From Bacteroidota bacterium (lineage in GTDB: Bacteria > Bacteroidota > Rhodothermia > Rhodothermales > UBA10348): 64,000 nucleotides of DNA. Shown piece by piece: positions 12,789 through 22,377 of this stretch (positions are counted from its first letter, which is position 1; the number at the start of each line of letters is the position of its first letter). Location of the stretch: assembly GCA_029262775.1 (NCBI GenBank), contig JAJCYR010000005.1, positions 3,183-67,182 on the forward strand, read 5' to 3'. The notes beneath the pieces were generated by a model that had not been told where the DNA came from, did no database searches, and saw only the letters and a program-made list of their open reading frames with translations. A program made the translations under genes and the position numbers.

Positions 12789-13043
12789 CTACTCGCTGTC
12801 CACGTGGACGAACTTGCGGTCACCCTGTCCACGCGAAAAGCGGACCTTGCCGGTCTGCGTGGCGAAGAGGGTGTCGTCGCCCCCACGGCCCACATTGCTT
12901 CCCGGATGAAATTTTGTGCCACGCTGGCGGACAATGATGGCGCCTGCCTGCACAAACTCGCCACCATAAGCCTTGATGCCAAGCATCTGGGGGTTGGAAT
13001 CCCGACCGTTCTTGGTCGATCCCATTCCTTTCTTATGTGCCAT
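12789..13043 (-). CDS. rpmA: 50S ribosomal protein L27
   Basis: [24 protein letters not shown]... is a canonical L27. Confidence 0.95.
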
Positions 13044-13114
13044 TGCTGAACTCCTTTTGGATTTGGTTCGTGTCGGATCGGACCCGGGTCAGATCCTGCT
13101 CATTATGGTGCAGA

Positions 13115-13429
13115 TCAGCCGGCGTTGAGCGCGGTCACCTTGATCTGTGTGTAGGGCTGCCTGTGGCCCCGTTTGACCTTGTAGCCCTTGCGGCGCTTTT
13201 TCTTGAACACAAGCACCTTGTCTGCCTTGAGGTGGTCGAGCACCGTAGCGTCGACCGATGCACCTTCGACGGTCGGCGTTCCCACCGATACGTTCTCGCC
13301 GTCGGCAACGAGGAGCACCTTGTCAAACGAGAGCGTGGAAGAGGTATCTGCCGACTGGCGGGGGATGTACAGCGTGTCGTCCTGGGACACCTTGTACTGC
13401 TTACCGGCGATTTCTACGATCGCGTACAT
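13115..13429 (-). CDS. rplU: 50S ribosomal protein L21
   Basis: MYAIVEIAGKQYKV... is a canonical L21, upstream of rpmA. Confidence 0.95.
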   Translation of the reverse strand: MYAIVEIAGKQYKVSQDDTLYIPRQSADTSSTLSFDKVLLVADGENVSVGTPTVEGASVDATVLDHLKADKVLVFKKKRRKGYKVKRGHRQPYTQIKVTALNAG

Positions 13430-13539
13430 ATCTTGCCTCTGCTTTGGGCGGCGGGTTGGTTACCGTCGCGAGAGTGTATACGAAAATATTCAGTCCATCA
13501 ATATACGGCACGCATTGCAGCCGTTCAAAGCATGCGGAT

Positions 13540-14196
13540 ATGGAAGAATTGAGAATTCAGGGGACAGGTGTCGTGCTCCGGCCCGGAAAACTGGTATGTG
13601 TGGGGCGGAATTACGCTGCCCATGCACGCGAAATGAAGAGCGACGTTCCCGCGGAGCCCATGCTCTTTCTGAAGCCTGCCAGCAGCCTTATTGGCCCACG
13701 TGGACAGATTCAGCTACCGCCCGAGTCGCAGGATGTTCACCATGAGGTCGAACTGGTAGTGATTCTCGGAAGGCACCTGCGCTGCGCCAGTCCCGACGAA
13801 GCCCTCGGCGCAATCGCGGGACTGGCGGTGGGGCTGGACCTGACGGCGCGTGACATCCAGCAACGTGCCAAGGAGAAAGGCCATCCGTGGAGTGTATCGA
13901 AAGGTTTCGACACATTCGCTCCGCTTGGCCCCATTGTGGAGGCCGACGCCGGGCAGCCGCGTCGCATCTCACTGAAAGTGAACGGCGAGCTGAAGCAGGA
14001 GGCCATGACGAGCGACATGCTCTTCCCAGTGGCCGACCTGTTGGCGTATGTGTCTGGGATCTTTACGCTTGAACCGGGCGATCTGCTCTTTACGGGCACG
14101 CCCGAAGGGGTAGGTCCCATTCGCAATGGCGACGTGCTGTTGGCAGAGATCGAAGGACTGCCGCCGCTGGAAATCACCGCCGTCCGTACTCGTTGA
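13540..14196 (+). CDS. Fumarylacetoacetate hydrolase (FAH) family protein
   Basis: KLVCVGRNYAAHAREM...MLFLKPASSL...HHEVELVVILG...GDLLFTGTPEGVG. ATG at 13540. Confidence 0.85.
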   Translation: MEELRIQGTGVVLRPGKLVCVGRNYAAHAREMKSDVPAEPMLFLKPASSLIGPRGQIQLPPESQDVHHEVELVVILGRHLRCASPDEALGAIAGLAVGLDLTARDIQQRAKEKGHPWSVSKGFDTFAPLGPIVEADAGQPRRISLKVNGELKQEAMTSDMLFPVADLLAYVSGIFTLEPGDLLFTGTPEGVGPIRNGDVLLAEIEGLPPLEITAVRTR

Positions 14197-15406
14197 GGTA
14201 GGCCATCGCGAATTCGGTCGGCGTGAGGCGGCGGCGGATGAGTTCGGGGGTTCCATCCGTGTGAATCCAGACTTCGGCGGGTAACGGGCGCATGTTGTAG
14301 GTCGATGAGAGTGACATGCCGTAGGCACCCGTATCGAGAATAGCCACGATATCGCCTTCGGCCAGTTCCGGTACGCCCCGGTCCCGGGCAAAAAAATCGG
14401 CCGATTCGCATATATTGCCGACAACATCGTACGTCTTTGGCGTACCGTCCGGACGCGACAGGTTGCAGATTGTGTGCCACGCGTCATAGAGAGCTGGACG
14501 GAGGAGGTGCCCCATGCCGGTATCGAGGCCGGCAAACGTTCTGCTGCCCGTTCTTTTGATGGTGTTCACCCGGCTGAGTAGTACACCCGACTCGGCCGTG
14601 AAGTAGCGTCCCGGCTCAAACCGGATTTCCAGACTCTTTGACGGGTGGGAGGCCACAAATTTCCGGATCGAGGCCACAATGGTCGATCGAAACTCCGCCA
14701 GGTCAAGTGGCGCCTCCCCTGCGCGGTAGGGTACGCCGAGGCCGCCGCCTACATTGATGAACTGCAGATCATTGAGGCGCCGGGCCGTTTCGAGAATGAC
14801 AGCAGCCGCATTCCACAGGATTTCGGTGCTCAGGATGCCGCTGCCAATATGCTGATGCAGTCCGACAATTCGGAGGTCATACCGAGCGGCAACGTCCAAT
14901 ACGCGGTCCATCTGTTCGACCGGAATGCCGAATTTGCTTCGGTCGCCCCCCGTGACCACGTGAGCGTGGTGGCCCGCGCCGATCTGCGGGTTGATGCGGA
15001 CGCAGACGTCGCTCTCGCCGAACGCCTCGCCGAGCCGACGGAGCCCCGACAGTTCTCCGATGTTCATGGTGACGCCGGCCTCCACGGCATACCGCATTTC
15101 ATGGTCGGTCATGTTGTTGGCCGAGTACAGGATGTGGGCCGGGTCAAAACCGAGGCGTAGCACAAGTTCGAGCTCTCCAGGCGATACGGCGTCGATTCCC
15201 AGCCCACATCGGCGCATGACGTCGAGAAGCGGCGGGCAGTGGTTTGCCTTCATGGCGTAGAGCAGGCGCACGGGAATGCCCTCCAGATGCGCCTTGAACT
15301 CGTTAATGCGTGCGAGGATGGTGGCCTCATCGTAGACGTATACGGGCGTGCCGTGCCCGGCGGCGATCTGCTTCAGCAGGCCAGGATGAAACGGGTGGGT
15401 GGACAT
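14174..15406 (-). CDS. lysA: Diaminopimelate decarboxylase
   Basis: PLP-Lys motif YAMKANH, GGGLGVPY and CESAD. Group IV decarboxylase fold. Confidence 0.9.
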   Translation of the reverse strand: MSTHPFHPGLLKQIAAGHGTPVYVYDEATILARINEFKAHLEGIPVRLLYAMKANHCPPLLDVMRRCGLGIDAVSPGELELVLRLGFDPAHILYSANNMTDHEMRYAVEAGVTMNIGELSGLRRLGEAFGESDVCVRINPQIGAGHHAHVVTGGDRSKFGIPVEQMDRVLDVAARYDLRIVGLHQHIGSGILSTEILWNAAAVILETARRLNDLQFINVGGGLGVPYRAGEAPLDLAEFRSTIVASIRKFVASHPSKSLEIRFEPGRYFTAESGVLLSRVNTIKRTGSRTFAGLDTGMGHLLRPALYDAWHTICNLSRPDGTPKTYDVVGNICESADFFARDRGVPELAEGDIVAILDTGAYGMSLSSTYNMRPLPAEVWIHTDGTPELIRRRLTPTEFAMAYLNEYGRR

Positions 15407-15439
15407 GATGGTGGGCGGGTCAGGTCTCGGATGGTTCGG

Positions 15440-16192
15440 TCAGAGCAGCAGTTCGGCGACAATGAAATCTGCAATCAGGATGTTTACACAGCTCACGACA
15501 ACCGCTTGGGTAGTGGATGAGCCGACGCCTTGGGCGCCCCCATGCGTGTTGAAGCCTTTCCAGCAGGCGATTGACGTGATGATGTATCCGAAAGCGAGCG
15601 ATTTCGTCATGCCATACATGGCGTCGAAGGGCGCAAAGTAGGTTCGCGCACCGCGCACGAATGCATCCATCGAAAGAAAGCCCATGTATTCGCCAGCAAA
15701 GCCGCCAGCCAGCACGGCTACGAGCGCGGAGGCCACGTACATGGCGGGAAACATCAGCAGGCCGGCAAGTACGCGGGGGAGCACGAGGTGGCTGACGCTG
15801 TTCAGGCCCATGGCTTCGAGGGCATCGATTTGTTCGGAGACCTGCATGGTGCCGATTTCGGCGGCAACGCTCGCGCCCACACGCGAGGCCATGACGAGGC
15901 CGGGGACGAGGGCGCAGAGTTCGAGCATAAGCGTGGGAACGACAATGGCGCCGATGGCATCTTCCGTGAGGACGGTATTCTGAAGCTGGTATGCGGTCTG
16001 AAGCGTCGTCACGACGCCGGCAAAGGCGCTGGCGAGCATGACGACAGGAAGCGCATCGAATCCGAGGCGGACGGCCTGCTGGAAGACCTCGCGGCGCAGG
16101 TGCACAGCCGAACGGGCAGAGGAGATGGCTTTGCACATGAACAGCACATAGTTGCCAAGGGACGACACGAGACTGGTGACGGCCGTGATCAT
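15440..16192 (-). CDS. mlaE: MlaE-family ABC transporter permease
   Basis: MlaE/Ttg2B core (VGASVAAEIGTMQVSEQIDALEAMG). ATG at 16192 overlaps the upstream TGA (ATGA). Confidence 0.85.
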   Translation of the reverse strand: MITAVTSLVSSLGNYVLFMCKAISSARSAVHLRREVFQQAVRLGFDALPVVMLASAFAGVVTTLQTAYQLQNTVLTEDAIGAIVVPTLMLELCALVPGLVMASRVGASVAAEIGTMQVSEQIDALEAMGLNSVSHLVLPRVLAGLLMFPAMYVASALVAVLAGGFAGEYMGFLSMDAFVRGARTYFAPFDAMYGMTKSLAFGYIITSIACWKGFNTHGGAQGVGSSTTQAVVVSCVNILIADFIVAELLL

Positions 16193-18864
16193 GATAGCGG
16201 GATGCTGGATGAGGTACGGGCAGCCGGATTGGTCGATGCCGTGTCCCGGCGGCGCGCATCGCGAAGGGTGCGCACGAGAAGGCGCAGGCTGTCGGGCCGG
16301 AAGCCGCGCTGGCGATTGGCGCTTCCAATTCGGAAAGCCAGCGTCCACTGGGTCATGAGCGTGTACCACGCCCTGAAGAGGGAGATCTCTGGGTCGTATA
16401 TGTGTGTTGCTTCTGAGGACACGCCGTTCAGTTCAAGGATTTTGAATCCGTCACCATGGACGAGACGGTCGGGGTCGGGCACCCGAATATCGTATCGACC
16501 GAAAAAGAAACCGTCTGTCTGACGGGATATCCGGTCAATCGTTTCCAAGAAGACGGGGTTCATGTGGCGGCGGCCATTGAGGAAGAGCGCGCCGCGGGAG
16601 TGGGTGCCGACTTCGGCGAGAGGGATTCTTGTGCCCTTGTCAAAGACGTGACCGAGGTCGGAGGAGAACCGCTTCATGAAGAGAGGCGCCATGCTGACGG
16701 CGCGCTCGTGATCGAGAATGAGCCGTTCGAGGGTGCGGCGTCCATCGGCGCGCAGCCAGACGGGGCGCTTTTCGGTGACGGAGAAGATCCGGCCGGAGGG
16801 CTGGCCGGGCTCGCGCACGTAAAAAACGCCGAGTTCGAGGCCGTCCACGAACTCCTGGGCAATGATGTCGTCCTCGTGGCAGGTGAAATACTGGTCAACG
16901 TCGGCCTGGGTGCGGGCAATCCAGACGCCCTGGCCCCGCTCGCCGATGTCGGGTTTGAGTACAATGGGGAAGGACAGGCCGTGCTGCTCGATAAAGGCCA
17001 TGACGCGCCCCGTCCGGTCGTTGGCCGCCCCGGGAATGAGCCGCCAGATGGCGACGTGCTGCTCGCTGTGGTGCAGGAGTTCCAGGATATCCCGCTTCCG
17101 TTCGCCCAGGAAGCCACCGGTGAACATGCCGGGATTGGATGCAGTGAAGAGGGTCAGGGAGCGGTACCGGATGGCAACGAGCAGTATCCAGACGACGACG
17201 GGGGCGTAGAAGATGGGTATCGGCCAGAATTCCCACCGCGAAATGCGGTGCCAGCGGGAGAGGAGCCGGCGCCGGCCGTTGTGCGTCGTGAGCGGGATGC
17301 CAATGTGGATGGTCAGGTAGAGCACGACCACGAGGACGACGAGCATCCAGATCGCGTAGGCTTCGTAGGTGGCGTAGAAATCGAGGATTTCCGTCCCGGC
17401 CCACGCCGAGAGTCCCGTGATGAGGGGTGTCCAGACAATGGCCGCCGCCGTGAAGTATCCCAGGAAAATCCAAAAGGGCGTTCGCAGTATCCCGGCGGCG
17501 ACGTACGTGGGAAGGCGCGTACCCGGCACGAACCGGCTGGCCAGAATGACGTGAGGTCCTTTTTCCCGGAACCAGCTGGCGCCGCGGTCGAGTTGGGCCT
17601 CCGTGAGCATCCAGGAAAACGGGGGAATGGCGAGCAGTCGACGTCCCAGCAGGCGCCCGGCGGCATAGAGGGCCACGTCGCCGATCACAATACCGAGGAA
17701 GGCGGCGAGGAGCGCCAGTTCGATGGACATGGTCCCGCGTGCGGCCAGGAGACCGGCTCCGATGGCCGAAAGGTCCTCACTCACGAAGGATATGAAAATG
17801 ATGAGCACGACCAGAATGAACAGGGCGAAGCCCGAAGAGGGGGGGACGCTCGTGGCGTCGAACGGGCGCTCGGCGGCGCGTATGCGCTCTGGTAGGGCTG
17901 TGGCGCGGGTCGGCGCCTCCTGGCGCTCGACCCGCGCCACAAACCTCGCAATGTGTCCGGCCGTCATTTCGGCTTCCTGGAAGGGTAGACCATGACCAAG
18001 GGACTCGAGGCTCACGAGCTCACTCTGTGGCACAATGCGGTGGTGTTCCAGCGCGGCTTCATAGGGCACGAGTGGATCGTCCACGCCGTGGATGATCTGC
18101 ATGGGCCCTTCCCAGGCCATGAGGTACTTCCGCAGTGGCCGCTGGTCCGAGTCGTAGAAGTTCCGGGCGTAGGATCTGCCCAGAATGGCATTGTCAAACC
18201 ATCCGAAGTGCGGTACCAGTTCGGAGACGGTCCAGATGGCGGCGAGCTGCAGGGCATGAATTGCTCTGTTCATGTGGTATGTACCCATCAACTCCAATTC
18301 CTGCACGCCGATCGCCGAAAGGAGCTGGACAGAGGCCACGCGGTCGGGAGACTCGTGTGCGGCCTCTATGGCGATGCCGCCGCCCATACTGTACCCCACG
18401 ATGTGTGCCCTGCGAATACCCAGCGAGTCCTGCAGTGCCATCAGGTAGCGCGCGTGGGCCGCAATGGAGTAGTCGTCAATGCGTAGGGTTGACCCTCCAA
18501 AACCTGGCATATCGGGCGTAATAACGCGAAAACGGCCATCCTCGGAGAGCGCCCTGTGGAGGGCCCGCATGGAGCGGGATGCAACCGGGCTGCCGTGCAA
18601 CACGAAGAGTACCGGCCGGGCCGAGTTGCCAGCCGCAGAAGTATCCGGCAGCGAATGGCCAGGCGCCGAATCGAGATAGGCAATGCGTACGGGCTTGGCG
18701 CCCGGCCGCGGCCGGGCCATGCGCACGTACTGATCATCGAGGGGACCGGGATCGTTCTGCGTCCAACGCGTCACATGTGATGCTGCGAGCAGCACCAACC
18801 AGGCTATGAAAAGTCGCCCCGTGAGCCGCCGCAGGCGACCCGTGGATGCCGCCTGTTTCGTCAA
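16189..18864 (-). CDS. Triple-fusion protein: alpha/beta hydrolase, DedA/VTT membrane domain, ATP-grasp ligase
   Basis: N-terminal anchor, then a hydrolase (HGSPVAS..., nucleophile elbow GYSMGG), a DedA-like region (SEDLSAIGAGLLAARG...ASRFVPGTRLP) with further TM helices, and a C-terminal ATP-grasp (IVLKPDIGERGQGV...EFVDG...ILELNG). TTG start lies 2 nt after the DinB stop. Confidence 0.75.
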   Translation of the reverse strand: MTKQAASTGRLRRLTGRLFIAWLVLLAASHVTRWTQNDPGPLDDQYVRMARPRPGAKPVRIAYLDSAPGHSLPDTSAAGNSARPVLFVLHGSPVASRSMRALHRALSEDGRFRVITPDMPGFGGSTLRIDDYSIAAHARYLMALQDSLGIRRAHIVGYSMGGGIAIEAAHESPDRVASVQLLSAIGVQELELMGTYHMNRAIHALQLAAIWTVSELVPHFGWFDNAILGRSYARNFYDSDQRPLRKYLMAWEGPMQIIHGVDDPLVPYEAALEHHRIVPQSELVSLESLGHGLPFQEAEMTAGHIARFVARVERQEAPTRATALPERIRAAERPFDATSVPPSSGFALFILVVLIIFISFVSEDLSAIGAGLLAARGTMSIELALLAAFLGIVIGDVALYAAGRLLGRRLLAIPPFSWMLTEAQLDRGASWFREKGPHVILASRFVPGTRLPTYVAAGILRTPFWIFLGYFTAAAIVWTPLITGLSAWAGTEILDFYATYEAYAIWMLVVLVVVLYLTIHIGIPLTTHNGRRRLLSRWHRISRWEFWPIPIFYAPVVVWILLVAIRYRSLTLFTASNPGMFTGGFLGERKRDILELLHHSEQHVAIWRLIPGAANDRTGRVMAFIEQHGLSFPIVLKPDIGERGQGVWIARTQADVDQYFTCHEDDIIAQEFVDGLELGVFYVREPGQPSGRIFSVTEKRPVWLRADGRRTLERLILDHERAVSMAPLFMKRFSSDLGHVFDKGTRIPLAEVGTHSRGALFLNGRRHMNPVFLETIDRISRQTDGFFFGRYDIRVPDPDRLVHGDGFKILELNGVSSEATHIYDPEISLFRAWYTLMTQWTLAFRIGSANRQRGFRPDSLRLLVRTLRDARRRDTASTNPAARTSSSIPLS

Positions 18865-18866
18865 AA

Positions 18867-19421
18867 TCAGGGCCTGTTGACTCTTTGTGGTACGTGGCTG
18901 CCCGTGATCGTTTTCGAGCGATGCTGCAGCGTGGACGGTGCCACGCCAAAATCCGGCGTTGGCTCAACGCCCTGGATACGGAGAATGAGGGCGATCAGGG
19001 CATAATGATGGATGGTGTGGGCCTGGAGATATTGCAACTCCCGTTTGATGGTGGAGTCGGACAGGGGGGAATCATTTTCTGGGGCGTTTGAGGCGGCCAT
19101 TTTGATCTCGAGGGGAGCGTCGACGGTGCTCATGGCATCGAGATCATGAATGATGCCTTCCATGATGTCCATGGCGCTCTCGCGGCTCGATGAAATCCTG
19201 GGGTCGCGTTTCCGGGCGTCATAGTCAACATGACCAGAGGCGAGGCCCTCCATGAACAGCTGATAATGCTCCACGATATGGCGCATGTGCTCGCCAACGC
19301 CAGACGGGAAAAGCGTGGCGTGCGTGGCTGTGTACTCGGCATCGGTAAGCGAGGCGAGGAGGTCAATGCCCTGCCAGAGGTGTAGCTGGTTAAGGGCTGC
19401 GAGTGTGTCTGTGCGCTTCAT
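18867..19421 (-). CDS. DinB-fold (DinB_2-like) protein
   Basis: Four-helix pattern with spaced His residues (HMRHIVEHY...HTIHHYALI). ATGA overlap with the upstream gene. Confidence 0.65.
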   Translation of the reverse strand: MKRTDTLAALNQLHLWQGIDLLASLTDAEYTATHATLFPSGVGEHMRHIVEHYQLFMEGLASGHVDYDARKRDPRISSSRESAMDIMEGIIHDLDAMSTVDAPLEIKMAASNAPENDSPLSDSTIKRELQYLQAHTIHHYALIALILRIQGVEPTPDFGVAPSTLQHRSKTITGSHVPQRVNRP

Positions 19422-20188
19422 CTGGCTTGCGTTGTGGGTGCCTGCAAATATAGCTCTTCTACGGAACGGAAAGCGGCGATCGACAACGTTTTACGGTCTG
19501 CCGGCTCAATGGGTGCGCTCCCGTAGCGGATACGTGCATTGAAGCGGGAAAACGTTAGCACGCGCCAAATATGTTCTCCGAACGACATGTCACCCCACCA
19601 GCAGAGGTCTATCGTGGCATCGCCGCCCGGCAGGTCGTAGGATATGGCGGCGGTGTGGACGGGCAGCCCCAATTCTGCCGGTACGGACATGAGCGGCGCC
19701 TTGAAGGGGAGCACGCTTGCCCCGGACGATGATGTGCCCTCCGGAAAGAATACGATGCCGTCGCCATCCGCAAGCACGCTTCGCATGTCGTCAGTGACGC
19801 GCGGAATGTCCCGAATGCGGGAGCGCTCTATGAAGATCGTCCCGAAGGTCTGTGCCAACCAACCAATGCCCGGCCAGTGGGCCAGGTCGGCGCGCGATAC
19901 CAGACGGGCTTTGGCGGTGGCTATGACCACCAGGATATCCAGGTAGCCGAGGTGGTTTGCCACAAGGCAGAAGGGGGGCTCGGGCGGGGACCCGCCGACA
20001 TGCAACCGGCCGCCCATGATGCGAAGCAGACCGCGCGCCCAGCACCCGGTAATTGTATGGCGCCACGTGACGCGTCCGTGAACGGTCCTGTGTTTGAACA
20101 CACGACCAATCCACCATGTCAGGGTGAGGAAAAAGGTGACCAGGACCATGGCAACCATCCGGCCGCCCGCCCGCACATGCTTGATCAT
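19418..20188 (-). CDS. Lysolipid acyltransferase (PlsC/LPLAT family, OlsA-like)
   Basis: HX4D motif ANHLGYLD, FPEGT motif and an N-terminal TM helix. ATGA overlaps on both sides. Confidence 0.8.
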   Translation of the reverse strand: MIKHVRAGGRMVAMVLVTFFLTLTWWIGRVFKHRTVHGRVTWRHTITGCWARGLLRIMGGRLHVGGSPPEPPFCLVANHLGYLDILVVIATAKARLVSRADLAHWPGIGWLAQTFGTIFIERSRIRDIPRVTDDMRSVLADGDGIVFFPEGTSSSGASVLPFKAPLMSVPAELGLPVHTAAISYDLPGGDATIDLCWWGDMSFGEHIWRVLTFSRFNARIRYGSAPIEPADRKTLSIAAFRSVEELYLQAPTTQAR

Positions 20189-20988
20189 GAAATGGTATAG
20201 AACGCCAAGTCGGACTGCTGCAGACTCTTCACGTCGAAGAGAGCAAGGAAATCTATTGTCTTGAATTCCGTATCCATGGCCGGAGGTCCACAGATGCGGG
20301 CTCCAAAACTAAGGTACGCGCGCATGAGGCGTGGGGGACGGATGGGCGGGAGCGTGGATCCCTCGGGAATTTCATTACAACAGGCGTAATCGGGCTGTGG
20401 CAGAATGCAGAGATCAGGGTGCATGTGCCCGTGCTCCTTCAAATAGGCGAGCGTGGCGCTGCCTTCCCGAGGATCCTGGCTTGTGATCGAACAGCAGCCA
20501 AAAAGGAAGCGTGAGCCTGTTGTCTGCAGGTAGTAACCGATTCCCTTCCAGAGTAGATAGAGTACCCTGAGACTCCGGTGCTCACGTAGAATACAGGCTC
20601 GACCTGTTTCCACACTTGTATCCAGTATCGATGGCGGAACGTTCGAAAAAATAAACTCGTTTTCGGAATACCATCCCTGGCCGCGGTGGGCCATGGTCGA
20701 GGTCTGCATCCGGTATGTACCGACCACGCGTCCGGATGGAACGTGACGGACGTAGAGGTGGTGGAACACATCGTCGTACTGGTCGATGTCTCGGCCCGTC
20801 TCGTGCGACGCGTCCAGACCTTCGTTCAGTTCCAGATTGAACACATGGTAGCGAAGCTCCTGAACGGCATGGAGGTCTTCCCGAGAGTGCACCCATCCCA
20901 GTTCGTACGCGCCATTGACGAACGTCCGCTCGGGAGCGGTGCTTTCGGGTGACCTCAGGCCAGTAGATATGTCGGGCTGTGCGTTCAT
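20185..20988 (-). CDS. GNAT-family N-acyltransferase, OlsB/GlsB-like
   Basis: LRYHVFNLELNEG...DQYDDVFHHLYV...VVGTYRM...ETGRACILREHR...PRLMRAYLSFGA matches the Acetyltransf_5-type lipid N-acyltransferase pattern. Confidence 0.75.
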   Translation of the reverse strand: MNAQPDISTGLRSPESTAPERTFVNGAYELGWVHSREDLHAVQELRYHVFNLELNEGLDASHETGRDIDQYDDVFHHLYVRHVPSGRVVGTYRMQTSTMAHRGQGWYSENEFIFSNVPPSILDTSVETGRACILREHRSLRVLYLLWKGIGYYLQTTGSRFLFGCCSITSQDPREGSATLAYLKEHGHMHPDLCILPQPDYACCNEIPEGSTLPPIRPPRLMRAYLSFGARICGPPAMDTEFKTIDFLALFDVKSLQQSDLAFYTIS

Positions 20989-21051
20989 GACCGTGTTTAA
21001 CGTATACTACGTACGCTTTGTTGTCATCAGCATAATCAATACGTAAAGATC

Positions 21052-21417
21052 ATGTCGGACGTCACGCTTTTCACGTGGAATGAGATGCCCAAGGAAGACT
21101 TGTCACCCCTGATATCGCGCCGCCTGGTGAGTGGTGAGCGCATGATGTTGGCGCATGTCTACCTCAAAAAAGGCAGTATTGTACCGCGGCACCAACATGA
21201 CAACGAGCAGATCACCTATATCCTGGAGGGCGCCCTCCGCTTTTTTATTGGCGAAAACGGAGACCAGATAGTTGATGTGCGCGCCGGGCAGGTTCTTCTT
21301 ATTCCTTCCAACGTGTGGCATAAGGCGGAAGCGCTCGAAGACACGCTCGATGTGGATGTGTTCAGCCCACCGCGCCAGGATTGGCTCGACGGTTCGGACG
21401 CATATCTTCGGGGATGA
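21052..21417 (+). CDS. Cupin domain protein
   Basis: Cupin motifs PRHQHDNEQITYILEG and LIPSNVWH. Confidence 0.75.
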   Translation: MSDVTLFTWNEMPKEDLSPLISRRLVSGERMMLAHVYLKKGSIVPRHQHDNEQITYILEGALRFFIGENGDQIVDVRAGQVLLIPSNVWHKAEALEDTLDVDVFSPPRQDWLDGSDAYLRG

Positions 21418-21441
21418 CCAGGCGCACGTGTCAACACGCCT

Positions 21442-22071
21442 CTAAAAGGCCCCACCCTTCAGTGAGCGCAAATAGTTCTTGAAGCCGGGCTTGTTGTAGT
21501 TGGCCATGCCCGAATGGACGGTCCCGAGCGTGCCATCCGAACCGATGACATAGGTCGTTGGCAGCACACGACTGGTATAGGGCTCAGGAAGTGGGGAGGC
21601 AAGGCGGTAGACCGGCAGCGTGTATCCCTTCTGCTGCATGAAGACCCGTGCTTCCTGCGCCGTATCGTCCGTGGAAATCATCACAAAAATAATATCTTCC
21701 TCCTTGACATCCTGGTAAAGGTCCTCAATGAAGGGCATTTCGGCCAGGCAGGGGGGGCACCAGGTGGCCCAGATATTCATGAAAATGGGCTTTCCCCTGA
21801 ATTCCGACAGCGAGACGTGCTCGCCGTCCAAGGTGACCAACTCGACGTCGAAATTGGCAGGCTGCCGGTTCTCCTCCGCCCAGTTCACGTCTGCCTGGAA
21901 CAGTCCGGTTGCCAGGACGGCCTGTTGCAACCAGCCTTGTGCCGTCGTTCCCGTGTCGGTGAACCGGAAAAAGGCAAAAATGCCGATTACCACCGCCCAC
22001 TCGGCCAGACTGCGCAGCTTGGAACGGCGCTTTGGAGAGGGTTTCTGCTTCTTGTTTTCCGTACGGGTCAC
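21442..22071 (-). CDS. TlpA-family thiol:disulfide oxidoreductase, membrane anchored
   Basis: WATWCPPC active site. I place the start at GTG 22071 because the listed N-terminus (to 22143) is encoded by the repeat arm. Confidence 0.75.
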   Translation of the reverse strand: MTRTENKKQKPSPKRRSKLRSLAEWAVVIGIFAFFRFTDTGTTAQGWLQQAVLATGLFQADVNWAEENRQPANFDVELVTLDGEHVSLSEFRGKPIFMNIWATWCPPCLAEMPFIEDLYQDVKEEDIIFVMISTDDTAQEARVFMQQKGYTLPVYRLASPLPEPYTSRVLPTTYVIGSDGTLGTVHSGMANYNKPGFKNYLRSLKGGAF

Positions 22072-22084
22072 GTGTCTCTTTTTT

Positions 22085-22377
22085 AGAAGGCTGTTGAATA
22101 AGTAGAGGGTCTCTCGAACGAGGGTCTTACGCGGTGCAGACAAGGAAGGGCGACGACGCGATGCCGTAGCATCGTGGAGGAGCCATGACGAACGTATGCG
22201 CCCGTAACCCCCTCGTTCCCTTCGGGTTCGGGCGGCATGACAACATCTTCCGCGTTGTCCCTTCTATGCGTAGCTATGGCTATGCAGACGTCGGGACGCC
22301 TTGAAGAGGCCGGGTATCCGGCCGTGTTGTCATGGCGCTCCGAACGAGAGCGCCCTCTACTTGTTCAACAGCCTTCT
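22085..22377. mobile_element. MITE-like non-autonomous element, copy 1 (~293 bp)
   Basis: Terminal inverted repeats agaaggctgttgaataagtagag (22085-22107) and ctctacttgttcaacagccttct (22355-22377), each with a subterminal hairpin. The internal ~70-nt core is shared with copy 2. Confidence 0.5.

Follow-up and report, generated by a model that had tools for sequence, protein, structure and literature searches.

Why should genes resembling those of aminolipid synthesis be chained to a gene that fuses an alpha/beta-hydrolase, a DedA membrane domain and an ATP-grasp ligase? This question is raised by a 64,000-nt stretch of contig JAJCYR010000005.1 (assembly GCA_029262775.1) from a Bacteroidota bacterium of the order Rhodothermales, which was analysed as a whole and is called the window below. 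Its minus strand carries five consecutive open reading frames (ORFs) from 20988 to 15440, as seen in the ORF list and in a reading of the reverse complement. An initial annotation had proposed that they form an uncharacterised system for the elaboration and trafficking of aminolipids, which are widespread phosphorus-free membrane lipids. Our analysis leads to the view that the known part is an OlsBA-type aminolipid operon, and that the new part is its widely distributed, uncharacterised ligase/translocase/hydrolase module. We consider it quite probable that the fusion protein works on the product of the neighbouring GNAT and PlsC genes.

A translationally coupled gene order conserved in many phyla

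The first gene of the operon (20185-20988, minus strand, as are all genes of the operon) encodes a predicted OlsB-like GNAT N-acyltransferase of 267 aa, the second (19418-20188) a predicted OlsA/PlsC-like lyso-aminolipid O-acyltransferase of 256 aa, and the third (18867-19421) a DinB-fold protein of 184 aa. All three have ATG start codons. They are followed by the gene for the three-domain membrane fusion protein (16189-18864, 891 aa), which starts with TTG, and by that for an MlaE-family permease (15440-16192), which comprises 250 aa when counted from the ATG at 16192; the mechanical ORF extends upstream to a GTG at 16369. Three ATGA stop/start overlaps join these genes, TTTCATGATCAAG at 20188-20185, GCCAGATGAAGCGC at 19421-19418 and CTATCATGATCACG at 16192-16189, and a gap of 2 nt (18865-18866) lies between the DinB stop codon TGA (18869-18867) and the TTG start codon of the fusion gene (18864-18862). 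The TTG start is credible because an N-terminal STxRLRRL stretch, the K/R-rich tail and the hydrophobic helix are kept in homologues, and because the fusion of the relative P0003 (79% identity) is also called with a non-ATG start. The five-gene arrangement is a single, translationally coupled expression unit, as the initial annotation had concluded from the same overlaps and gap; it had omitted a sixth gene, lysA, 33 nt downstream.

Gene order was analysed by tblastn of the window proteins against 80 loci from different species and, in addition, by independent ORF clustering. Upstream counts refer to the 64 loci for which 3.5 kb or more of upstream sequence was available, and downstream counts to the 70 loci with downstream sequence. 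Upstream of the fusion gene and on the same strand, GNAT was found in 45/64 loci, PlsC in 41/64 and DinB in 40/64; all three were present in 29 of the 64 loci and at least one in 57. The core order GNAT, PlsC, DinB, fusion recurs in Rhodothermales, KSB1, Acidobacteriota, Gemmatimonadota, Planctomycetota, Verrucomicrobiota, Desulfobacteraceae and Pseudomonadota metagenome-assembled genomes (MAGs), and the conservation of gene order extends over at least eight phyla. The arrangement is not due to chance, because the same order is found in relatives down to about 42% identity. Conservation in relatives had been named as the check that could refute the initial proposal, and the order was found on one strand in many phyla. 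When one genome per GTDB species was scanned, at least 572 genomes carried the fusion, with the labels Rhodothermales/Bacteroidota, KSB1, Opitutales/Verrucomicrobiota, Acidobacteriota, Gemmatimonadota, Planctomycetota, Desulfobacteraceae, Calditrichota and Pseudomonadota.

A further partner emerged from these comparisons. In 20 loci, a gene of about 280 codons whose product begins with MCT...NRDE and belongs to the TANGO2 family sits between DinB and the fusion, and it commonly overlaps the fusion start by 4 nt. In the homologue P0325 (1,121 aa), TANGO2 is joined in frame to hydrolase-DedA-ATP-grasp, and an independently gene-called 616-kb contig contains Acetyltransf_5, Acyltransferase, a 178-aa gene, TANGO2 and then DedA-ATP-grasp. 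The operon thereby gives the TANGO2 family, which is poorly understood, a link to bacterial lipid metabolism. The TANGO2 gene is missing from the operon in the window, and this frequent member had been overlooked, whereas the attachment of DinB and the fusion to the lipid genes held. Two components that had been taken as fixed proved to be variable. The MlaE gene follows the fusion in only 4-5 of the 70 loci, namely in the Rhodothermales relatives L001-L004 and L018, and is a lineage-specific, translationally coupled addition outside the conserved core. DedA+ATP-grasp proteins of about 560 aa, which occupy the same operon context, lack the hydrolase domain. The conserved system therefore comprises GNAT, PlsC, DinB, an optional TANGO2, and a DedA-ATP-grasp protein with or without the hydrolase.

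The literature searched contained nothing that paired OlsB or DedA with an ATP-grasp, ornithine lipid with DinB, or DedA with ornithine lipid, and no useful account of lipids turned up for Rhodothermus, Gemmatimonas or genera related to them. In agreement with the initial annotation, no described system of this composition was found. As far as the literature searched shows, both the protein family and the operon are undescribed.

Enzymes of the conserved gene set

All domains named at the outset were recovered by Pfam (Acetyltransf_5, Acyltransferase, DinB_2, Abhydrolase_1, VTT_dom, RimK and MlaE). The GNAT matched Acetyltransf_5 with an E-value of 6.7e-27 (94.6 bits, cut-off 22.4) and the NCBIfam OlsB models NF052555 and NF052554 with 1.8e-31 and 1.8e-30; its scores of 109.7 and 106.6 bits lie well below the respective equivalog cut-offs of 320 and 350. 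By these profiles, it is best classified as a member of the wider Acetyltransf_5/OlsB-like family only. The second enzyme matched Pfam Acyltransferase (PF01553; 1.3e-18, 67.5 bits, cut-off 23) and contains the HX4D motif as HLGYLD at 19954-19937 (residue 79) and FPEGT at 19747-19733 (residue 148). It matched NCBIfam OlsA with 2.6e-40, at 138.1 and 113.4 bits compared with an equivalog cut-off of 300. Both proteins thus belong to OlsB/OlsA-like families without being orthologues of the characterised ornithine enzymes, and because the scores are so far under the equivalog cut-offs, the head-group amino acid is left unspecified. Of the OlsB/OlsA-type two-step route that had been assigned to this pair, the families and motifs were confirmed and the equivalog level was not reached. 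The ornithine-lipid pathway (OlsB/OlsA), like those for glycine lipid (GlsB/GlsA) and glutamine lipid (GluB/OlsA), uses the same two enzyme families, with the B gene before the A gene and overlapping genes, and the product here would likewise be an acyloxyacyl amino-acid lipid. However, the described pathways have no DinB, TANGO2, DedA, ATP-grasp or alpha/beta-hydrolase partner (PMC12971839), whereas the operon analysed here has them.

The DinB protein scored just above the Pfam gathering thresholds (DinB_2, 27.2 bits versus 24.8, 5.9e-6; DinB, 25.1 bits versus 23) and had no NCBIfam match. Residues H48, H135, H139, R47, R70, R72 and R127-E128 were invariant among 15 operon-linked homologues, and the protein is a putative three-histidine metalloenzyme. 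A profile search of the PDB yielded a single match, the unannotated 'DinB-like protein' 3dka (1.6e-3), and a profile search of a set of 5.8 billion proteins retrieved nothing but free-standing 'DinB family' proteins of about 170 aa, with no clue to function.

The fusion protein has more than 1,671 homologues, all of which are nameless or called 'alpha/beta fold hydrolase', and its NCBIfam matches are weak and all far under the cut-offs. A full-length AlphaFold2 model had a mean predicted local distance difference test score (pLDDT) of 84.8. Residues described below as invariant refer to an alignment of 36 full-length homologues. From the N-terminus, the protein is predicted to consist of a membrane helix A (residues 17-33, 18766-18816, within a hydrophobic segment 15-35 preceded by a K/R-rich tail), an alpha/beta-hydrolase domain (residues ~40-315, 17920-18747), a DedA/VTT membrane domain (residues ~339-528, 17281-17850), a hydrophobic helix H with positive charge on both flanks (residues 549-566, 17167-17220) and an ATP-grasp ligase domain of the carboxylate-amine ligase type (residues ~568-860, 16285-17163). 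When the ATP-grasp part by itself was used in an exhaustive HMMER search, 973 clusters (50% identity) were obtained at E <= 1e-30. They fell into three length classes of about 860 aa (hydrolase, DedA and ATP-grasp), 560 aa (DedA and ATP-grasp) and 370 aa (helix and ATP-grasp), the last of which may in part be fragments.

The ATP-grasp domain gave a partial match to Pfam RimK (6.4e-6, 26.3 bits, cut-off 21). The ATP/Mg ligands, on whose presence the initial annotation had made its proposal depend, are retained in all 36 aligned homologues: K637 in VLKPDxGxRGxGV (16956-16954), D792, and E811 and N813 in ELNG (16434-16426). A profile of the C-terminal 336 residues matched, among PDB entries, CphA2 (7ta5, 1.4e-8), cyanophycin synthetase 1 (5e-7), the RimK-domain protein 8fxh, GshAB and Ddl. 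A fold search with the full-length model was dominated by generic alpha/beta-hydrolase matches, and the ATP-grasp domain was modelled separately (pLDDT 88.6, predicted template modelling score 0.85). With this model, Foldseek retrieved CphA1 (7wae, 2e-10), GshAB (3ln6), CphA2 (7ta5) and then many Ddl enzymes, with a Foldseek probability of 1.00 for CphA1, GshAB and Ddl. The template modelling score (TM-score) to the closest solved relatives was about 0.5 at 15-20% identity, with fold E-values of 2e-10 to 1e-9. CphA, GshAB and Ddl-type ATP-grasps phosphorylate a carboxylate and join it to an amino acid via the amino group of the latter; for the CphA1 G domain and GshAB, the carboxylate is that at the C-terminus of a peptide. 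The nearest relatives by profile and by fold thus place the domain in the carboxylate-phosphorylating, amide-forming ligase branch, which is what the initial annotation had expected.

The closest solved relatives, i.e. the cyanophycin synthetase G domain, CphA2 and the C-terminal ATP-grasp of GshAB/GshF (profile E-values of 1.4e-8 to 2.4e-5), share the motifs VLKPxxGxxGxGV, GDGxSTLxxLI and ELN with the fusion protein. In contrast to them, its ATP-grasp is membrane-embedded. The soluble N-terminal substrate-binding domain of the usual three-domain layout was not found; about 65 residues precede the central domain, and its place is taken by helix H followed by an invariant, family-specific FTAxNPG...GESK segment. 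Helix H and this segment may represent an adaptation to a membrane-resident carboxylate substrate. One homologue, P0020, has a low-complexity insert of about 40 residues (GTTGTFGTTGTTGTTGTEDSGD...) between helix H and the ATP-grasp core (alignment columns ~650-690).

The relationship to cyanophycin synthetases raises the possibility of lipid-primed oligo- or poly-amino-acid synthesis, in which the N-acyl amino acid would be a primer that is extended repeatedly, exported via DedA, and released or transferred by the hydrolase. The top profile and fold matches are indeed processive enzymes (cyanophycin synthetases 1 and 2 and the RimK-domain protein 8fxh), and the GDGxxTLExLI insertion aligns with CphA. 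The similarity is modest, however (TM-score ~0.5, 15-18% identity), and the single-residue adders GshAB and Ddl match equally well. The protein is also outside the cyanophycin synthetase family as defined by TIGR02068 (21.7 bits versus a cut-off of 850), and Pfam detected no Mur-ligase-like M domain. The conserved gene set has no second ligase domain or other polymer machinery, and lipid-anchored polymers of this kind are not reported in a review of aminolipids (PMC12971839). We regard polymer synthesis as very unlikely.

The same matches bear on the order of the reactions. If the ATP-grasp first made a free dipeptide or amide that the GNAT then N-acylated, or if it supplied an unusual amino acid, the presence of Ddl and of L-amino-acid ligases among the matches would be accounted for, and so would the GNAT scores under the OlsB cut-offs, which leave its substrate unspecified. 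Yet the ATP-grasp is always tethered to the membrane, by fusion to DedA or by its own helix, which is needless for soluble substrates, and in Bacteroides the glycine lipid precedes the Ser-Gly lipid, so that acylation comes first (PMC12971839). Such a reversed order therefore has only a slim chance of being correct, and a lipid carboxylate remains the favoured substrate.

Membrane topology was deduced from the distribution of positive charges. The mean number of K+R over the 36 homologues is 3.7 in the N-terminal tail, 10.2 in loop D-F after the first long DedA helix, 0.7 in loop F-G and 6.3 in loop G-H; the flank after helix H has a mean of 2.2. ATP-grasp-only proteins open with an R-rich tail followed by helix H, hydrolase-less variants have N-termini without positive charge ahead of the first DedA helix, and helix A of P0325 comes after a TANGO2 domain devoid of a signal sequence and a linker rich in R. 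Because the ATP-using domain must stay in the cytoplasm and the ATP-grasp-only proteins start with the R-rich tail and helix H, this helix cannot span the membrane, and it would dip into the cytoplasmic leaflet rather than cross it. The charge distribution and the TANGO2 fusion together indicate a cytoplasmic ATP-grasp and a probably periplasmic hydrolase. In the favoured topology, the N-terminus would be inside, helix A would cross the membrane, the hydrolase would probably be in the periplasm, and the DedA bundle would lead back to the ATP-grasp in the cytoplasm.

The hydrolase domain matched Abhydrolase_1 with 7e-27 (95 bits) and contains an invariant Ser-Asp-His triad formed by S159 in GYSMGG (18390-18388), D263 and H291. 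In the fold search with the full-length model, it resembled esterases and lipases, including ABHD6 and the membrane-anchored phospholipase PlaF (6i8w). PlaF-type phospholipases A likewise place a Ser-Asp-His alpha/beta-hydrolase behind a single N-terminal helix, but this likeness is generic (about 20% identity), and only here is the hydrolase fused to DedA and ATP-grasp. An alpha/beta-hydrolase fold is also found in OlsI, which can acylate lyso-ornithine lipid (PMC12493201); this O-acyltransferase is likened to the fusion's hydrolase by description, not by sequence. Among loci with hydrolase-less fusions, L082 has a separate 290-aa Abhydrolase_1 gene that is only 23% identical to the fusion's hydrolase and was rejected as an orthologue, and L081 has no separate match to this domain. 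An apparent 3.5-kb match in L067, suspected to contain an extra fused domain, turned out to be an ordinary fusion of 879 aa.

The DedA domain matched VTT_dom with 4.8e-14 (53.3 bits, cut-off 33.9), and E363, D364, D396, R444 and R450 are invariant. The gene fusion ties this domain, from a family with much-debated substrates, to a specific lipid pathway. It could be argued that the protein is instead a general transporter of the DedA type, which might recycle polyprenyl phosphate or couple lipid transport to protons, for example, and that the aminolipid genes are mere neighbours. A weak NCBIfam match to the undecaprenyl-phosphate transporter UptA would be in line with this, as would the roughly 10% of loci that lack partner genes. 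But the UptA score of 51 bits is far under the cut-off of 250, and the cross-phylum synteny, the translational coupling, the fusion of TANGO2 to the protein and the invariance of the ligase residues all argue against a general transporter, which we consider quite improbable.

A candidate route for head-group extension

In the mechanism that we propose, the GNAT would N-acylate an amino acid, whose identity is left unspecified, with a 3-hydroxyacyl chain, and PlsC would esterify the 3-hydroxyl group to give an acyloxyacyl amino-acid lipid with a free alpha-carboxylate. The ATP-grasp domain, held at the cytoplasmic face by the membrane-dipping helix and the FTAxNPG...GESK segment, would turn the lipid carboxylate into an acyl phosphate and couple it to an amine, which could be an amino acid or a compound of the taurine or polyamine type, yielding a dipeptide-type or otherwise extended head group. 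The DedA domain would move the lipid to the outer leaflet, and the N-terminally anchored, probably periplasmic Ser-Asp-His hydrolase would remove or remodel the added group or an acyl chain. Further modifications might be made by the DinB protein with its three-histidine metal site and by TANGO2 with its N-terminal cysteine, and in Rhodothermales the coupled MlaE permease may serve envelope trafficking. We infer the substrates, the products and the direction of transport throughout. That the genes form an aminolipid synthesis-and-elaboration operon working by this ligate, translocate and remodel mechanism is a reading that we hold with slightly less than even confidence.

Chemistry of the proposed type is known from other lipids. 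A 2026 review lists three pathways to ornithine lipids (OlsBA, OlsF and OlsHI) and five modifications, and notes that the ATP-dependent transfer of taurine to the carboxyl group of ornithine lipid has no known gene; head groups of Ser-Gly and Orn-Ser-Gly exist as well, with glycine lipid as the intermediate (PMC12971839). The gene that ligates serine in the formation of Ser-Gly lipids is unidentified, and no candidate emerged when B. dorei was searched with Pfam for ATP-grasp and further amide-forming domains (PMC12746155). In cerilipin, in which taurine is attached to ornithine lipid, and in the Ser-Gly lipids flavolipin and lipid 654, the free carboxylate of an N-acylated amino acid is converted to an amide, as proposed here, and the cerilipin reaction is ATP-dependent, as expected of an ATP-grasp. 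The taurine-ornithine and Ser-Gly extensions thus provide a precedent for the proposed chemistry. However, they come from Gluconobacter and from Bacteroidia/Flavobacteriia, which are not among the carriers seen here. Because the carriers differ and B. dorei yielded no ATP-grasp candidate, the fusion would be at most analogous to the enzymes that make cerilipin and Ser-Gly lipids, and not the same enzyme.

The operon offers a candidate enzyme class, a membrane-embedded ATP-grasp, for the unassigned extension of aminolipid head groups, and the question becomes testable. A more far-reaching version is that the fusion is the first lipid head-group ATP-grasp ligase and a self-contained 'ligate, flip, trim' machine that converts OlsBA-type lipids into dipeptide-type, longer or amine-capped aminolipids on the cytoplasmic side, passes them through its own DedA domain and edits them in the periplasm. 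About a thousand protein clusters (50% identity) from at least eight phyla contain this protein. This version is offered tentatively, and we think it rather doubtful. If true, it would represent a new tRNA-independent route to charged membrane lipids and a direct substrate assignment for a DedA domain. The cluster is found in soil and marine phyla that are abundant yet poorly represented in culture (Acidobacteriota, Gemmatimonadota, Verrucomicrobiota and Rhodothermales), and its product could be a common, unrecognised class of environmental lipids.

The arrangement of activities in the fusion protein recalls MprF. In this system, a cytoplasmic aminoacyl-phosphatidylglycerol synthase, a translocating flippase domain and exoplasmic hydrolases such as PA0919 and AcvB act on the same lipid. 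By analogy, the ATP-grasp could activate a free amino acid and transfer it, independently of tRNA, to the hydroxyl or amino group of another lipid, e.g. phosphatidylglycerol or a lyso-lipid. Flipping would be left to DedA, the hydrolase in the periplasm would be an aminoacyl-lipid hydrolase like PA0919/AcvB, and the OlsBA-like genes would adjoin as membrane-charge tuners. Apart from the shared layout, this alternative would be compatible with the loci that lack GNAT and PlsC, and with the ability of ATP-grasps to form esters, since the D-Ala-D-lactate ligase 1e4e is among the fold matches. The resemblance to MprF concerns functional logic only and does not extend to homology: MprF combines a tRNA-dependent GNAT-fold synthase with the MprF flippase, whereas the fusion unites ATP-grasp, DedA/VTT and hydrolase in one polypeptide, and the Pfam scan revealed neither an LPG-synthase (DUF2156) nor an MprF flippase domain. 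Three further points disfavour transfer to another lipid. The order GNAT-PlsC-DinB lies directly upstream and on the same strand in about two thirds of the loci across phyla, which exceeds usual co-regulation; the best structural relatives, the CphA1 G domain and GshAB, extend the carboxylate of a peptide or acyl-amino acid; and the replacement of the soluble N-domain by a membrane-proximal segment suggests that the lipid is the carboxylate substrate. We therefore judge MprF-like aminoacylation to be unlikely, though with a small chance worth keeping in mind, and prefer extension of the aminolipid carboxylate.

Several observations weigh against the mechanism proposed above. The GNAT and PlsC scores are well under the OlsB/OlsA equivalog cut-offs, so that even the first product is predicted by homology. 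The nearest structural relatives include the polymerising enzymes CphA1 and CphA2, so that a single added residue is not the sole possibility. The hydrolase is missing from a large subset of homologues and hence is not essential to the core reaction. Its predicted side of the membrane follows from charge statistics and one fusion, and the canonical N-in topology of DedA proteins would put it in the cytoplasm. About 10% of the loci lack all partner genes over a distance of 4-5 kb and have seemingly unrelated neighbours. A look-up of cluster members for a cultured carrier returned MAG labels only, and Bacteroides and Gluconobacter, which make Ser-Gly and taurine-ornithine lipids, were not among the carriers seen.

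Lineage-specific and flanking genes

The MlaE-family permease scored 212 bits (1e-62) with Pfam MlaE and 172 bits with TIGR00056, the subfamily cut-off of which is 212. No ORF with an ABC signature was found in the 64-kb window, and the MlaF and MlaD partners of an MlaFEDB system are not encoded alongside MlaE. In L003 (11417-13624) and L018 (11532-13751), the gene after MlaE, which lies between MlaE and lysA, encodes a protein of about 735 aa that appears from its sequence to be amino-acid/cation transporter-like, and not MlaF.

Thirty-three nucleotides past MlaE, the same strand continues with lysA (14174-15406), which encodes diaminopimelate decarboxylase (TIGR01048 equivalog, 391 bits versus a cut-off of 298). 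The 33-nt interval contains no terminator-like site, and lysA, itself a housekeeping neighbour, is probably co-transcribed with the operon. It adjoins the operon only in Rhodothermales relatives. A role as head-group decarboxylase was ruled out, since the protein passes the lysA equivalog cut-off and the gene is adjoining in one order only. The position of lysA beside an amino-acid-lipid operon could hint at a lysine head group, which is only a guess. A promoter and terminator scan of 13900-21500 gave counts no higher than in shuffled sequence and none at gene boundaries, FCB-group promoters being outside the coverage of the scan. In the window as a whole, Rfam and tRNA scans detected two distant tRNAs only, with no riboswitch or leader near the operon.

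The gene order around the operon also contains elements specific to Rhodothermales relatives. A divergent cupin gene (21052-21417, plus strand) lies 63 nt from the GNAT start, and a gene for a TlpA-like thioredoxin-fold protein (21442-22143, minus strand) lies upstream of the operon; both positions are kept in L001-L003 and L018, and in L004 the thioredoxin-fold gene is about 3.4 kb further upstream. On the other side, a convergent gene of the FAH hydrolase family (13537-14196, plus strand) overlaps the 3' end of lysA by 23 nt, and two small ORFs about 0.7 kb past that end (12789-13429, minus strand) resemble, by eye, L21 and L27 (rplU-rpmA).

In loci lacking GNAT and PlsC, a search for alternative aminolipid synthases turned up only a GDP-mannose dehydratase, a POT transporter, a response regulator and an M24 peptidase. 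The POT-family di/tripeptide transporter (L005, 4636-6087) lies two genes upstream of the fusion, with an unannotated 276-aa gene and TANGO2 in between, and the start of the M24 metallopeptidase gene (L033, 10547-11839) overlaps the fusion stop. Where GNAT is present, it is preceded in nine loci of Acidobacteriota, Gemmatimonadota and related groups (L009, L010, L015, L020, L027, L029, L050, L056 and L081) by a gene for a membrane protein of about 360 aa with Ferric_reduct and Rieske domains, which is usually followed by an unannotated protein of about 260 aa, X6. This could be a lipid hydroxylase or desaturase module. A secreted-looking protein of about 245 aa with the HExxH-like motif AHEIAH and no Pfam match occurs in L041, L043, L045, L047, L053, L059, L065 and L070, mostly downstream of the fusion; in L047 and L065, its gene is on the other strand and upstream. 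A DoxX-like small membrane protein is an occasional neighbour of the fusion (L020, L025, L027, L044, L055 and L065). Seven loci (L024, L031, L032, L043, L045, L051 and L059) come from MAGs labelled Heliomicrobium/Heliobacteriaceae (Firmicutes), which is odd in view of the otherwise diderm, non-Firmicute distribution, and these labels may reflect mislabelled co-assembly bins.

The segment 16001-18000, which corresponds to the membrane and ATP-grasp part of the fusion gene, has the highest GC content (0.634), GC skew (0.141) and AT skew (0.133) of the window. This peak is likely to be due to coding-strand composition rather than to foreign origin.

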